Below are positions 19,287 to 24,988 of a DNA stretch of 64,000 nucleotides, piece by piece; position 1 is the first letter of the stretch; the number at the start of each line of letters is the position of its first letter. The notes below the pieces were generated by a model. It searched no databases. It had not been told where the DNA came from and saw only the letters and a program-made list of their open reading frames with translations. This DNA comes from Candidatus Latescibacterota bacterium (lineage in GTDB: Bacteria > Latescibacterota > UBA2968 > UBA8231), in assembly GCA_965197905.1 (NCBI GenBank), contig CBDAOB010000004.1, forward strand, positions 1,376,001-1,440,000, read 5' to 3'. The position numbers and the translations under genes were made by a program.

Positions 19287-19880
19287 ATGCTGGAAATAAC
19301 CCAGAAAGCGCAGCACAAAATATCAGAGCTGATCGCCCAGAGCTCGGAGGAGAACGAAAAGCTGGTCAAGGGATTGCGGGTGGGAGCTGAAGCCCGTTCA
19401 CCGCTCAAGGTTGATTTCCGGCTCGCCTTTATCGGGGACGGCCAGGAGAACGCCGATGATGAGGTGATCCCCTTTCCCGGGTTCGAGGTGTATGTGGATC
19501 CTGAGAGTCTCCCCTATGTGGAAGACGCCATCGTTGACTTCGTCGACGGCCTCATGGGGTCCGGTTTCAAGGTGGAGCGCAAAGACAAGGCGATGCCGAC
19601 CGCTTCCGGTCCCGTCGCCGAGCGCATTCAGCAGGTTCTCGAACAACAGATAAATCCGGCCGTTGCCAGCCACGGCGGTTCCGTGGCACTGATCGACGTC
19701 AAGGAGAATGTCGTGTATGTCGAGTTGGGAGGCGGATGCCAGGGGTGCGGCATGGCCGACGTTACGTTGAAACAGGGGATCGAGGTCGCCATCAAAGAAG
19801 CCGTCCCGGAAATCACCGAAGTACTCGACGTGACCGAGCACGCAGACGGCAACAATCCGTACTACCAGCCTTCCAAGTAG
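19287..19880 (+). CDS. nfuA: Fe-S cluster biogenesis protein NfuA
   Basis: Degenerate A-type N-terminal domain plus NifU-C domain INPAVASHGG...GGCQGCG. Confidence 0.85.
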   Translation: MLEITQKAQHKISELIAQSSEENEKLVKGLRVGAEARSPLKVDFRLAFIGDGQENADDEVIPFPGFEVYVDPESLPYVEDAIVDFVDGLMGSGFKVERKDKAMPTASGPVAERIQQVLEQQINPAVASHGGSVALIDVKENVVYVELGGGCQGCGMADVTLKQGIEVAIKEAVPEITEVLDVTEHADGNNPYYQPSK

Positions 19881-19914: not shown

Positions 19915-21324
19915 ATGCCAGCCGCCGCCCTGCGCGTTCTTCTTCTATCCACCTACGAGTTGGGCCGGCAGCCATTCGGCGTCGCCTCTCCGGCAGCCTG
20001 GCTGCGGCGCGCGGGATTCGCGGTCCAATGCCGCGACCTGTCCATTGAGCCACTGGAGGACGAGCTCTTCGAATCTGCCGATCTGGTCGCCTTTTTTCTG
20101 CCCATGCATACAGCAGCGAGGCTGGCGCTGCCGTTGATCGCCAGGGCACGGGCGCTCAATCGGGAGATCTACCTGAGTTGCTACGGATTGTATGCGCCCC
20201 CAAATGAGAGCTACCTGCGCAGCCTGGGTGTTGAGTCAGTGCTGGGCGGCGAATTCGAGCAGGGCCTTCTCGACCTCTGTCGTTGGGTCGAGGATGGGCA
20301 ACCCATTGGCAAAGAGATTCCGGCGATCTCCCTGGCGCGGCAGCGGTTTCAGGTTCCCGATCGCCATGATCTTCCGGCGCTGTCGGAATACGGCCAGCTG
20401 CAATACCCAGATGGATCTCTGCTCGAGGTGGGGTACACCGAAGCCAGCCGAGGTTGCAAACATCGGTGCCGGCACTGTCCCGTCGTTCCCATCTACGACG
20501 GCCACTTCCGCGTCGTGCAACAAGAGGTGGTGTTGGCGGACATTCGCCAGCAGGTCGAGCGCGGCGCCTCTCACATCACCTTTGGCGATCCCGATTTCTT
20601 CAATGGGGTCGGCCACGCCATCCCGCTCGTCGAACAGCTGCACCAGGAGTTCGCGGAAGTCACCTACGATGTGACGATCAAGGTGGAGCATCTGCTTAAA
20701 CACCGCGACCGATTGCCCCACCTGCGGGCGACCGGGTGCGTTCTCATCACCTCCGCCATCGAGTCAACCAACGACCATGTTCTTCGTCTCTTGCGCAAGG
20801 GGCACACCCGCGAAAACTTCCTCCGCGTTGCGCGGCTGTGCACCGATGTGGGAGTCGGCCTCAACCCGACATTTGTCCCATTTACACCGTGGAGCGGCAT
20901 GGCGGATTACCTCGATCTCTTGGCGACGATCGTCGAGCTGGACCTGGTGGAGCAGGTCGCGCCCGTGCAGCTGGCGATTCGCCTGCTGATTCCGGAGGGA
21001 TCGGAGCTGCTTGCCTGCGCCGAAACGCGGAACGCCATCGGTCCCTTCGACCCGGAGCAGTTGAGTTACCAGTGGCGACACCCCGATCGCCGTGTGGACG
21101 AGCTTTACCACTCCGTCTACAGGTCGGTTTGCGAAGGGGTGGCGCAGGGGCGCTCGAGAGTGCAGATCTTCGCTGATCTCTGGAGGTTGGCGCACGAGAT
21201 GGAGAACTGCCCGACCCCATTGCCCCGATCGGTCTTTGCTCCGCCCCCGGTTACGATACCGTTCATGACGGAACCATGGTACTGCTGAGCGGAACCGCCT
21301 GCTGAGCCGGTGGCTCTGGTTTAG
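19915..21324 (+). CDS. CUAEP-tail radical SAM selenoprotein (B12-binding-like N-terminus); TGA 21286-21288 probably read as Sec
   Basis: CKHRCRHC CxxxCxxC motif; C-terminus TEPWYC-TGA-AEPPAEPVALV-TAG. Confidence 0.85.
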
Positions 21325-21356: not shown

Positions 21357-22586
21357 TTATTCGATCGCGATTGAAAGCGCCTCGTAAGCGGCGCGGAGCG
21401 CCCTCTCTACGGCGTCGGATGTCGCATCCCGGGCGAATATGAACCCGAGATAGCGGTCACCTTCGGGCAGGGGTTCCACGGGCGTCCCCATCGCGATACT
21501 GACGACGATCTCTTCCACCCCGGGCATCGTGCGGGCGGCATCTAATCCGTCGACTGCGCGCAGGATCCCGCGGCTGGGAACGGGAATCATCATAACCCCC
21601 GAGGCACCTCCCGTACGGAGGGTATCGACCGCCTGGCCGAGAGCGTGTCTGAGCACCACCTCCTCCAGGGAAATGTGGGCTTCGAAGCGCAGTGTGCGGG
21701 CGCACAGGCCCCCTATGGTGCGGGCGGCAATCTCCACGATCCAGACACCGTCGTCGTTGAAACGAAGCTCGGCGTGAATCGGGCCCTCCGTGAGGCCCAA
21801 CGCGCGGGCACCTTCGGCAGCCGCCGCCACCAACTCCTCTTGTAATCGCGGTTCGAGACGGGAGGGGGTTACATACAACGTCTCTGCGAAATACGGCCCT
21901 TCCAGCGGATCCGGCTTGTCGAACAACGCCAACAACTGCAGCTCTCCGTGTGCGAGCAACCCCTCCAGCGCCACCTCTGTTCCCGGGATGTACTCTTCCA
22001 CCAGGATCTTGTCTGCATCCACGCCGGACCGATCGGCAACGGCGGGGTGTGCCAGAATCCGGCGAATCCTCTCGAACGCGGCAGTGAACTGCACTTCGTC
22101 GTCGGCCCGGATCACTCCGCGGCTGGCTGCTAATCGAATCGGTTTCAAGACGCGTGGGAAACCCGGTAGCTGGTCGTTGGCCGGCCCGGCATCCGCGTCG
22201 CAGAGCACGATCTGGGGTGTCTGAAGGCCGGCGTCTCGCAGCGCACGACGCATCCGATATTTGTTGCCGGCGGCGCGCACGGAGGCGGGGCTATTGCCCC
22301 TCAGTGAAAGGGTCTCGCTGGCGCGGGCCGCCAACAGGGCGCTGTGATCGTCGACGCCGACTACCCCGTCGAGCGGCCAACTCCGGGCGAATTCCTCGAT
22401 CGTGTCTACCGCTGCGTCGAGATCGTCCAGGTTCACCGTGAGGGTCTTGTTCGCCACCACCGCGTCCAGAGCCTGAGGTTGCTCCGAAGCCACCACCACC
22501 TCGGCACCGAGCTCGTCGGCCGCTGCCAGAAACGGCGCCGCTTGATAGGTATAGGTGGGGAGGATCAGCAAAAGACGGGATCTCAT
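21357..22586 (-). CDS. ATP-grasp domain ligase
   Basis: NKYRMR, VLKP...ASRGV, VEEYIPG, HAELR, EIAAR; ATG overlaps upstream TGA. Confidence 0.85.
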   Translation of the reverse strand: MRSRLLLILPTYTYQAAPFLAAADELGAEVVVASEQPQALDAVVANKTLTVNLDDLDAAVDTIEEFARSWPLDGVVGVDDHSALLAARASETLSLRGNSPASVRAAGNKYRMRRALRDAGLQTPQIVLCDADAGPANDQLPGFPRVLKPIRLAASRGVIRADDEVQFTAAFERIRRILAHPAVADRSGVDADKILVEEYIPGTEVALEGLLAHGELQLLALFDKPDPLEGPYFAETLYVTPSRLEPRLQEELVAAAAEGARALGLTEGPIHAELRFNDDGVWIVEIAARTIGGLCARTLRFEAHISLEEVVLRHALGQAVDTLRTGGASGVMMIPVPSRGILRAVDGLDAARTMPGVEEIVVSIAMGTPVEPLPEGDRYLGFIFARDATSDAVERALRAAYEALSIAIE

Positions 22587-23569
22587 TCCGCTACGCCTTC
22601 CAGATGCTGAATGCCGAAACGCTTGAGGCGGTCGTGTAGCGTCGACCGGCTCATTCCCAACGTCCGTGCCGTGGCGGCGATGTTGCCACTGCATTCCTGC
22701 AGCGCCTCCCGCAGCTGCCCTTTGTCGACGTCCGCCGATGAAGCAGAAGGTGGGGGTTGCTGCAGACCCGCCAGATCGGCGATTTCGATAACCTGACCGG
22801 TACAGTTCAGAATCGCCCGCTTAATAGCGGCACTCAACTCACGTACGTTGTTCGCCCTCCATGGGTTCCGCCGCATCCAAACCATCGCCTCGTCGGAGAA
22901 ACCCTCTACCCCCTGACGACCGTAGCGCGTCTTGTACCGGTGGAGGAAGTCCAGGGCCAGAAGCGGAATGTCCGATGCGCGCTCGCGCAAGGGAGGAAGC
23001 GCGATCTCGTACTCGGCCAGGCGGAAGAACAGGTCCGGTCGGAACTGTTGTTCCAACATAGCTGATTGCAGATTCAGGTTTGTCGCCGCCACGACTCTCA
23101 GGTCCAACCCGATCTCCTTTGATTCTCCCAATCTGCGAATCACCTTTGCTTCCAAAGCCCGTAGCAGCTTCGGCTGGATGGCCAGGGGCATCTCCCCTAT
23201 CTCGTCCAGAAACAAGGTTCCGCCGTTGGCTTCCGCGAAACAGCCATCTCGCGCGGCGTGTGCGCCGGAGAAGGCACCCTTGCTGTGACCGAAGAGCTCG
23301 GCTTCCACCAGCTGCTCGGGGATTGCGGCCGCGTTGATTGCCACGAAGGGGTGAGCGCATCGCGTTGGATCGGCATCATGCACGGCTCGCGCGATCAACT
23401 CCTTGCCGGTTCCGCTCTCCCCTGCTATGAGAACGTTTATGGGGATTCCGAGAACGCGCCTGACGCTTTCCACTACCCCTGACAGGCCGCGATCGTATCC
23501 GATGATGTGCGAAAAATCGAACCCTCGATGTGTGGCAGCGGGTTTTTCTGATTCAACTCTGCCGTTCAA
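22583..23569 (-). CDS. Sigma54-dependent activator (AAA+ and Fis-type HTH, no N-terminal sensor domain)
   Basis: GESGTGKE, ELFGHSKGAFSGA, LFLDEIGE, FRPDLFFRL, C-terminal HTH. Confidence 0.9.
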   Translation of the reverse strand: MNGRVESEKPAATHRGFDFSHIIGYDRGLSGVVESVRRVLGIPINVLIAGESGTGKELIARAVHDADPTRCAHPFVAINAAAIPEQLVEAELFGHSKGAFSGAHAARDGCFAEANGGTLFLDEIGEMPLAIQPKLLRALEAKVIRRLGESKEIGLDLRVVAATNLNLQSAMLEQQFRPDLFFRLAEYEIALPPLRERASDIPLLALDFLHRYKTRYGRQGVEGFSDEAMVWMRRNPWRANNVRELSAAIKRAILNCTGQVIEIADLAGLQQPPPSASSADVDKGQLREALQECSGNIAATARTLGMSRSTLHDRLKRFGIQHLEGVAE

Positions 23570-23607
23570 AACCGCTCCGCTGTTTGGTAGTGGAAGTCGC
23601 TATTGGA

Positions 23608-23636
23608 ATTATGGTTCGCGGAAGAGCTGGACTCAA
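23608..23636 (-). promoter_or_regulatory. Sigma70-type promoter for activator/ATP-grasp operon
   Basis: TTGAGT-17-CATAAT on minus strand. Confidence 0.5.
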
Positions 23637-23926
23637 GGATAAAATTTTACGTTTTTGAACACTTTTTACGCTGGCGCGACACAAAATCGCCTGCCGTCGG
23701 TACCGCTTCGACGTGTACCGGTACCAGATCTTGCGGGTTGCGCCCAATTCCAGGTCTGCGATTTCCAACAAGGCCTGTGCCAACTCCTATCTACTTCCGT
23801 GTATTCGCCGAAACTTGCCCGCAGGTGAGAAGGTCACCCGTGGCGGGCGGGCACACATATTGCAGCGCGGCGAGGTGAATAGTTCGCATGGTTGTCACCA
23901 CCACCTCAAACCGATGGAGGTTTATT

Positions 23927-24988
23927 GTGAGCACCGCGAACCTAGAAGAAGATTCCAGCTTCCCCGTATCCGTTTCGACGTGGAACCCAGCTCCGCACAA
24001 TCACTCGAACCCTCCGGTCACGCCCAATCCCAATGTGATGATCACCCGCAATCCACTGATGCGGCGGTTGTTGGCTCAGCTCGATCAGATCGCAGGCGCA
24101 TCGGCGACGGTGCTCATCAGTGGCGAAAGTGGCACGGGCAAGGAGGTTCTCGCACGCGCCATCCACGATCGCAGCCAGCGACATCGCGAGCCGTTTGTCA
24201 GCCTGAACTGCGCTTCACTCCCGGATGGCCTGTTGGAAAGCGAGCTCTTTGGGCACGAGCGCGGGGCCTTCACCGGAGCAATCAGGCAGCATGCCGGCCG
24301 CTTCGAGGTGGCAAACGGCGGCACCCTGTTTCTCGACGAAATCGGCACGGCCGATGCCCGCGTACAGCTGCGGCTTCTCCGCGTATTGCAGGAGCGGGAG
24401 TTCGAACGAGTTGGTGGCTCGCGGACCCTACGGGTGGATGTGCGGGTGTTGGCCGCCAGCAATGTCGACCTCGCCGAAGAAATCGAAGCGCACCGCTTTC
24501 GCGCCGACCTTTACTATCGCCTAAACGTTCTCCCCCTCCACCTCCCGCCACTGCGGGAACGAGCGGACGACATTCCGCTTCTGGTGGAACACTTCTTGAA
24601 GAGGGCCGCCGAGCGGAACGGAAGGACCCTGCCCGAGATCGAGCCCGAGCTGATGGGGCGCCTGACCTCCTACGGTTGGCCCGGAAACATTCGCGAACTG
24701 GAGAACGCGGTAGAGCAGATGGTGGTTTGTGCCCGTCGCAACTGCCTTACGGTCCGTGACCTTCCACAAATGCTCCTGGACAGGGACGCGACGGAAAATC
24801 CCAATGAGCTAAGCGCTTCGAGCTTTCGTGAGGCGAAAGAGATGTTCGAGCGCCGCTATCTCTCCGCTGCCCTAAGACGGCATCACGGCGTAATTAGCCG
24901 CGTGGCGACCGACATTGGCATGTCTCGTAAGAACCTATATATGCGACTCGAGACCCTCGACATCGACTACGATCGGTTTCGCTCATGA
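23927..24988 (+). CDS. Sigma54-dependent activator (AAA+ and HTH, no N-terminal sensor domain)
   Basis: GGAGG RBS before GTG 23927; GESGTGKE, ELFGHERGAFTGA, FRADLYYRLNV, WPGNIREL. Confidence 0.9.
   Translation: MSTANLEEDSSFPVSVSTWNPAPHNHSNPPVTPNPNVMITRNPLMRRLLAQLDQIAGASATVLISGESGTGKEVLARAIHDRSQRHREPFVSLNCASLPDGLLESELFGHERGAFTGAIRQHAGRFEVANGGTLFLDEIGTADARVQLRLLRVLQEREFERVGGSRTLRVDVRVLAASNVDLAEEIEAHRFRADLYYRLNVLPLHLPPLRERADDIPLLVEHFLKRAAERNGRTLPEIEPELMGRLTSYGWPGNIRELENAVEQMVVCARRNCLTVRDLPQMLLDRDATENPNELSASSFREAKEMFERRYLSAALRRHHGVISRVATDIGMSRKNLYMRLETLDIDYDRFRS

Follow-up and report, generated by a model that had tools for sequence, protein, structure and literature searches.

What does a radical S-adenosylmethionine (SAM) enzyme do with a cysteine and a selenocysteine (Sec) placed side by side near its C-terminus? 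The question is raised by a gene at 19915..21324 (+ strand) of a 64,000-nucleotide stretch of contig CBDAOB010000004.1 from a Candidatus Latescibacterota bacterium, the whole of which is here called the window. The gene product, of 469 amino acids with Sec at position 458, combines a Rossmann-like N-terminal domain with a radical SAM barrel and belongs to a family named for its CUAEP or CCAEP tail. The answer proposed here, by analogy with the arsenic enzyme ArsL, is that the protein would transfer the aminocarboxypropyl (ACP) group of SAM to a soft metalloid held by the tail, most likely trivalent arsenic, after which a dipeptide would be formed; the proposal is as apt to prove wrong as right.

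Selenocysteine and family membership

The gene runs from an ATG at 19915 through TGC (21283-21285) and an in-frame TGA (21286-21288) into eleven further codons (AEPPAEPVALV) and a TAG stop at 21322-21324. A preliminary description of this DNA had read the ending as WYC-U-AEPPAEPVALV across the TGA, and comparison with the window sequence and its translation found that reading exact. With the TGA taken as Sec, the protein scores 600.2 bits against the NCBIfam model for CUAEP/CCAEP-tail radical SAM proteins (NF040546; cut-off 500) over residues 8-467, and the C-terminal motif of that model, C-[U/C]-A-E-P, is present as WYC-U-AEP. A CxxxCxxC motif at 20455..20478 (+; C181, C185 and C188), found in 87/87 family rows and 3/3 ArsL rows, is predicted to hold the [4Fe-4S]-SAM cluster. 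Nothing at the level of the family distinguishes this member from the rest of NF040546, apart from a local Pro in place of Gln in its tail (EPVAL versus EQLAL).

The family occurs widely among soil and sediment bacteria, and species genomes hold at least 562 matching stretches. Homologs were drawn from the best 80 of these matching loci and from 11 other carriers among 60 relatives, and removal of the window's own row and one duplicate left 90. At the column of the UGA, 80 of the 90 have TGA and the other 10 have TGC or TGT, while the residues that follow are AEP in 82 and SEP in 8, so that none lacks [A/S]EP; this is the pattern that the preliminary description had proposed to look for among homologs. 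An 11-codon extension, the same as the window's, is found in 53 of the 80 TGA homologs. In a FastTree tree made without the tail, which left out L025, L054, L057 and L067 (no N-terminal motif) as well as the window's own row and one duplicate, the Cys forms are scattered through the Sec forms at about seven distinct positions, and the starred branches are compatible with a single origin.

The host genome (6.69 Mb, 91% complete) encodes selA, selB and selD above cut-off together with a tRNA-Sec, so that all four genes of the Sec machinery suggested for a search (selA, selB, selC and selD) are present, and its selD has an in-frame TGA of its own. Among relatives, selA occurs in 12/12 carriers of the radical SAM gene against a background of 55/61 genomes, and it was found in 3/10 genomes with Cys forms, several of which are incomplete. 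The UGA is thus very likely read as selenocysteine: the NF040546 score, the complete Sec machinery and the Sec/Cys pairing among homologous sequences all support the selenoprotein and family assignments made earlier. The word "hidden," which had been attached to the selenoprotein, overstates its novelty, since NF040546 is already curated as a (seleno)protein family; the call is routine for a curated family, and the tail is missed only by gene callers that stop at UGA. On a plasmid of Thermomicrobium roseum (L128, 6935-8416), for example, the listed coding sequence of a family member stops at TGA though AEP continues in frame.

The gene is single-copy in the host genome. A public contig spanning 20952-21469 has zero differences from the window and may be the source data, and the closest named homolog, at 70% identity and labelled uncultured Gemmatimonadaceae, is identical over the compared stretch to a copy from the same genus (G001). 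In Haft and Gwadz 2022 (10.1101/2022.07.06.499078), NF040546 is listed as uncharacterized, and CU motifs are suggested to interact with heavy metals; no other relevant paper on CUAEP or CCAEP/NF040546 was located in the literature. The description of a recognised family with no assigned reaction is therefore borne out as far as the search extended.

The SECIS hairpin

Decoding of UGA as Sec depends on a selenocysteine insertion sequence (SECIS), and a small hairpin, GAGCC-GGT-GGCTC, had been placed 15 nt past the UGA; it lies at 21304-21316. Across 76 distinct Sec tails, a 6-bp stem (columns 17-22/28-33) that closes a loop of 5 nt shows 88.4% pairing and 65 two-sided changes. Its covariation is 0.41 versus 0.21 in shuffles (0/500 as high), and slid controls, which weigh more here because related sequences can beat shuffles, give 0.12-0.20 with 44-54% of positions paired. 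The family-conserved core of this hairpin (GAGC/GCTC, with loop G at 21309) occupies 21304..21316 (+). The loop G is present in 76/76 Sec tails versus 5/10 Cys tails, and the full 4-bp stem with the G in 58/76 Sec tails (most of the others being bulged) versus 1/10 Cys tails. Among 181,817 TGA triplets in the genome, 212 (0.12%) are followed by a 4-bp stem having these loop letters. The loop G falls within the 16-37 nt after the UGA that were taken to delimit a SECIS hairpin. A stem extension by AACC/GGTT, also suggested earlier, proved not to be conserved, with 40% pairing and zero two-sided changes.

In the window gene itself, a rival 9-bp hairpin at 21302..21324 (+), seen only there, pairs 21302-21310 with 21316-21324 around the loop UGGCU (21311-21315). 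Its predicted fold has a stability of -11.5 kcal/mol versus -7.0 for the family hairpin. This advantage of 4.5 kcal/mol for the 9-bp helix displaces the family hairpin from the fold predicted for this gene and leaves it a pair probability of about 0.01, as against >0.5 in the other 75/76 Sec tails. This raises the alternative that UGA is now mostly a stop in this strain, the family SECIS being outcompeted and the product ending at WYC, and the -7.0 kcal/mol of the family hairpin does just miss the -7.5 limit included among the four constraints of the bacterial SECIS consensus, as given in PMC13188914. This alternative is highly improbable, given that nothing is lost from the tail peptide, from the G and U of the loop or from the length of 11 codons, and that the Sec machinery is complete in the genome. 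Moreover, the competing hairpin itself conforms to all four constraints of that consensus, with a 5-nt loop having G second, a 9-bp stem, a distance of 22 nt from the UGA and a stability of -11.5 kcal/mol, and a SECIS-like structure would therefore be present either way. A register shift or a weakened Sec insertion is possible. The rival hairpin includes the real stop codon, and the window differs from a sister species (L108) across 21302-21324 by four synonymous changes.

Relationship to ArsL

After NF040546, the best-matching family is ArsL (NF040542), with 280.2 bits over residues 8-410, the next family reaching 44. Identity to three plasmid-encoded ArsL/RCCLKC proteins is 31-34% over about 410 residues, and the two kinds of protein share a two-domain layout and an aligned vicinal pair at the C-terminus, where Cys457-Sec458 (TGC TGA at 21283..21288, + strand) aligns with the first two cysteines of RCCLKC after an insertion of about 47 residues before the tail. 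In 87 family rows, 138 columns are conserved at ≥95%, and at 66 of these all three ArsL proteins share the family residue. They differ in that the window protein has two chalcogen ligands, one of them Sec, where ArsL has three Cys, and in that CUAEP genes lie beside a ligase and iron-sulfur genes, while ArsL lies in ars operons (3/3 ArsL loci viewed sit among ars genes).

ArsL splits SAM into methylthioadenosine and an ACP species and binds As(III) with its tail (Yao 2024). According to Yao 2024 and Serrano 2026, that tail is required for formation of the carbon-arsenic bond and not for cleavage of SAM. By analogy, SAM cleavage of the ACP type is probable for the CUAEP family, and, granted such cleavage, a metalloid bound by the tail would probably be the acceptor. 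An ArsL mutant designated "MCCA" is reported in a review (PMC13598754, section 5.1) to be the most efficient on methylarsenate. The designation, which is not explained in that passage, is taken here to mean retention of CC and alteration of the third Cys; if so, the mutant would mimic the CUAEP family and point to methylarsenite. From these sequence comparisons, the window protein likely works like ArsL, but it departs from ArsL in the three respects that were tested, namely score, tail and ars location.

The C-terminal tail and the predicted fold

The tail had been pictured as a flexible arm with a redox, metal-binding or Se/S-carrying role. Residues P449, E453-P454-W455-Y456-C457-U458 and E460-P461 are ≥97% conserved, and an AlphaFold model (36 sequences) has a pLDDT (predicted local distance difference test) of 91.2, with residues 451-460 at 74 and 461-469 at 55. 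Because of this conservation and the modelled confidence of residues 451-460, the block is suggestive of a motif for docking that is borne on a variable linker; the earlier picture of a flexible arm thus holds in part. With respect to role, metalloid binding is favoured over a generic redox function because the sister protein ArsL binds As(III) with a matching Cys tail for ACP transfer, and the idea of a selenium carrier is disfavoured, as discussed below.

The redox role nonetheless merits consideration in its own right. The Cys-Sec pair could act as a swinging couple, returning the active site to its reduced state or quenching a radical, the substrate being an ordinary organic one, such as an amino acid that is then used by the ligase. 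We regard this as unlikely: ArsL, a far closer relative than AprD4 (only 16-18% identical), binds substrate with the aligned cysteines, and no thioredoxin, glutaredoxin or reductase is present among the annotated recurring neighbour clusters (87 representatives). We know of no Cys-Sec tail in AprD4 or in the B12-requiring radical SAM enzymes OxsB, TsrM and MgmA.

These four proteins match the model's fold (AprD4, OxsB, MgmA and TsrM), the listed matches include no entry for ArsL, and a PDB sequence search with the radical SAM protein gave nothing at E 0.01. Identity to AprD4 (PDB 6fd2), OxsB, TsrM and MgmA is 14-18%, and the shared fold shows no function. The matches to OxsB, MgmA and TsrM would nevertheless suit a cobalamin-dependent radical SAM methyltransferase, in which the N-terminal domain binds B12, His65 lying close to its lower axial site, and the tail holds a metal or metalloid for methylation. 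H65 is invariant in the family and Phe in ArsL, PF02310 is matched weakly (20.3 bits, below its cut-off of 32.1), and HgcAB-like corrinoid genes adjoin two loci. Such an enzyme is very unlikely, however, as a methylated product would leave the amino acid ligase without a role, and a review (PMC12931638) describes AprD4 and ArsL homologs as having Rossmann-related domains with no cobalamin binding.

A co-occurring amino acid ligase

Convergent with the radical SAM gene is a partner that the preliminary description overlooked, an ATP-grasp gene of the L-amino-acid ligase (LAL) type at 21357..22694 (- strand; Pfam ATP-grasp_4, LAL_C2 and ATPgrasp_N) whose likely start is the ATG at 22586. Among 61 related genomes, orthologs of this ligase (E<1e-100, ≥51% identity) occur in 12/12 carriers of the radical SAM gene and in 0/49 others, seven of which hold only distant ligases at 31-32%. 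The two genes are unlinked in G038, G040 and G056 yet both present. The carriers are spread over nine genera besides a patchy background in family f1, and kin are not independent. In the neighbourhood set of 81 loci (80 plus the window), several of them truncated at the end of a contig, 56 have an ATP-grasp ligase no more than 8 kb away, 53 of the main type and three fused to a GNAT domain.

The best solved relative of the ligase is BL00235 (PDB 3vot; E 5e-36), which has the same LAL three-domain layout and is far more distant from it than are its own orthologs; the ligase passes no NCBIfam cut-off. Methionine belongs to the amino acids that carry an ACP group. Met-Gly and Met-Met are formed by BL00235, according to PMC6920838. 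The partner ligases have an invariant Cys after the R-x-x-G-G loop, at a position that is not Cys in BL00235. This residue, Cys331 of the R-x-I-G-G-L-C active-site loop (21702..21704, - strand), is present in 53/53 full-length partners, comprising 50/50 of the main type and 3/3 of the GNAT-fused type with three fragments left out, and is a candidate binding site for a thiol-loving side chain.

The GNAT-fused ligases are found at L047 9340-14745, L024 9375-11426 and L086 11748-13646, and two of them have Cys-rich C-terminal ends. A search for longer homologs gave eight proteins, five of which joined the radical SAM protein to ligase domains; these apparent fusions were rejected as assembly artefacts, four lacking the WYC tail and having frame-shifted junctions and the fifth being frame-shifted in its ligase part. 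Two of the three ArsL loci viewed also hold an ATP-grasp gene. In two Bacillota clusters of the ArsL type (L129, 3430-4964; L130, 3124-4674), a CMD protein and an ATP-grasp ligase are present, hinting at an arsinothricin dipeptide; no such dipeptide from clusters of this type was found in a literature search.

Proposed function

Taken together, the relationship to ArsL and the constancy of the ligase suggest the following sequence of events. The iron-sulfur cluster would cut SAM to release the ACP group, which would be passed to a soft metalloid held by the Cys-Sec pair, and the co-occurring ligase would then join the new amino acid into a dipeptide. That the acceptor is arsenic in particular is somewhat doubtful overall; if it is, the presence of two tail ligands, as against three in ArsL, would speak for methylarsenite. 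The part of Sec, for which Cys can substitute, would be to enhance binding or reactivity, and the role of the pathway may be to remove thiol-loving metalloids that threaten iron-sulfur enzymes. In favour of such a role, YggX or NfuA neighbours many of the loci (see below), and soft metal(loid)s are reported in PMC10699150 to dismantle exposed [4Fe-4S] clusters.

Several observations weigh against this proposal. With respect to the protein, the ArsL cut-off of 450 bits is not reached, and 72 of the 138 conserved columns differ from ArsL, including M64-H65, C275 and the EPWY docking motif. The third tail Cys is absent in 87/87 family rows, and in Serrano 2026 arsenite is bound by all three ArsL cysteines, with single Cys-to-Ala changes cited as inactivating; lacking the third Cys, a two-ligand tail cannot copy the three-Cys arsenite binding of ArsL. 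C275 itself is a conceivable third ligand for the metalloid; in the predicted model it lies ahead of barrel strand E275-283. The ligases linked to ArsL are only 25% identical to the window ligase and have Ile at the Cys331 position in 2/2 cases, and the aconitase-damage passage of PMC10699150 names Cu, Hg, Ag, Cd and Te, not As.

With respect to genomic context, ars genes are nearly absent from the 81 CUAEP loci (arsC at one, arsR-like at two and arsM-like at two), with arsB, arsQ, arsN1, arsH, permease and aquaporin genes at 0/81 (Acr3 not being among the queries), and no exporter or self-resistance gene is conserved at them. A dependence on arsM was examined and rejected, the gene being present in 4/12 carriers versus 12/49 non-carriers. 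Since the loci are nearly without ars genes and arsM does not track with them, a plain arsinothricin cluster is ruled out. No arsM, arsQ or arsN1 cluster occurs among the annotated window neighbours, and two ArsM-like methyltransferases encoded elsewhere in the host genome (G000; C4:1959417-1960556 and C4:1572790-1573548) are unlinked to the locus.

A fuller version of the proposal is conceivable but rather unlikely to hold in all its parts. In it, a two-enzyme pathway, in which the selenoenzyme captures methylarsenite or another soft metalloid and forges a carbon-metalloid bond with ACP before the Cys-bearing ligase caps the product as a dipeptide, would be widespread in Acidobacteriota, Gemmatimonadota, Chloroflexota, Methylomirabilota and others, yielding an organoarsenic or organometalloid metabolite outside resistance operons as part of iron-sulfur upkeep. 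If true, arsenic cycling would gain a new metabolite and a natural selenoenzyme that forms carbon-metalloid bonds. No paper linking the CUAEP family, ArsL and the ligase was found in a search that did not extend to subscription journals or to supplements on bioRxiv. With the relationship to ArsL, the close pairing with a ligase and a tail of two ligands, the family's function becomes testable.

Iron-sulfur genes in the neighbourhood

The genes that recur beside the radical SAM gene are those of iron-sulfur metabolism (the SUF operon, Rrf2, SufT, NfuA, YggX and aconitase) together with MoaA and NadA. In the window the order is nfuA, the radical SAM gene and then the ligase on the opposite strand, and gene orders vary between phyla. 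The nfuA-type iron-sulfur carrier gene (19287..19880, + strand; below the NfuA equivalog cut-offs) lies 34 nt upstream of the radical SAM gene in the same direction and is probably co-transcribed with it. It is the only copy in the host genome, and nfuA is directly upstream of the radical SAM gene in 12/12 carriers among relatives. As a dedicated partner NfuA was rejected, being present in 54/61 relatives, and its position therefore marks co-regulation with iron-sulfur upkeep. Across the 81 loci, YggX is found at 38, aconitase at 14, NfuA at 11, MoaA at nine and DUF169 at seven; YggX or NfuA is nearby in 49, and both together in none. YggX was not found in the host genome (91% complete) by protein or Pfam query.

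This setting would also suit a further alternative, in which the tail carries sulfur or selenium as a persulfide or selenosulfide from SufS or NfuA, homocysteine or selenohomocysteine results from ACP transfer, and the ligase forms from it a small dipeptide, a thiol or selenol, by which iron-sulfur clusters are protected. Apart from the recurrence of the above genes, dithionite traps the ACP species of ArsL as homocysteine sulfinate, as described in Yao 2024 and Serrano 2026, and BL00235 uses Met (PMC6920838). It is generally known, however, that homocysteine is ordinarily obtained through S-adenosylhomocysteine, against which a radical synthesis from SAM would be wasteful, and nfuA is a general housekeeping gene, as its frequency among relatives attests. 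A selenium product, and with it the selenium-carrying tail, is disfavoured because Cys-Cys forms exist and seven of the ten genomes with them had no selA found, incomplete as several are. A sulfur- or selenium-carrying tail is thus quite unlikely, and transfer of ACP to a metalloid is preferred.

In the host genome, the SUF operon (C4:1145902-1152030) ends with sufT and an Rrf2 gene. In related lineages nfuA follows sufT/Rrf2, while here it is about 243 kb away, beside the radical SAM gene.

Organometal-type clusters and other observations

A minority of CUAEP loci are clusters of an organometal type, which counts in favour of the metalloid proposal. At L040 (9603-13915) and L044 (9521-12255), the CUAEP gene is followed by DUF169, a CpaM methyltransferase and an HgcAB-like fusion; in L040 the last two are above cut-off, with NF043040 and NF043039 exceeding theirs, and L044 has the same gene clusters. 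L040 additionally encodes a VioD-like enzyme and another radical SAM protein. In Nonomuraea sp. (L071, 8010-14582), a CCAEP gene is followed by a methyltransferase, an aminotransferase, a 2-oxoglutarate-dioxygenase-like gene, two MerB-like genes and DUF169; from its gene content, this cluster of a cultured actinomycete is a candidate for making an organometalloid natural product. L047, which carries one of the GNAT fusions, also holds ArsR, CMD, a pyridoxal-phosphate-dependent decarboxylase, DUF169 and a MerR-type regulator.

The window has no tRNA in its 64 kb, and a scan for promoters and terminators gave nothing above chance that helps. Long N-terminal extensions of the open reading frames at L016, L053 and L070 had no Pfam match. 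Finally, two divergent open reading frames at 22583-24988 of the window encode proteins whose N-terminal parts are very short and whose domains are of the sigma-54 interaction and Fis types.
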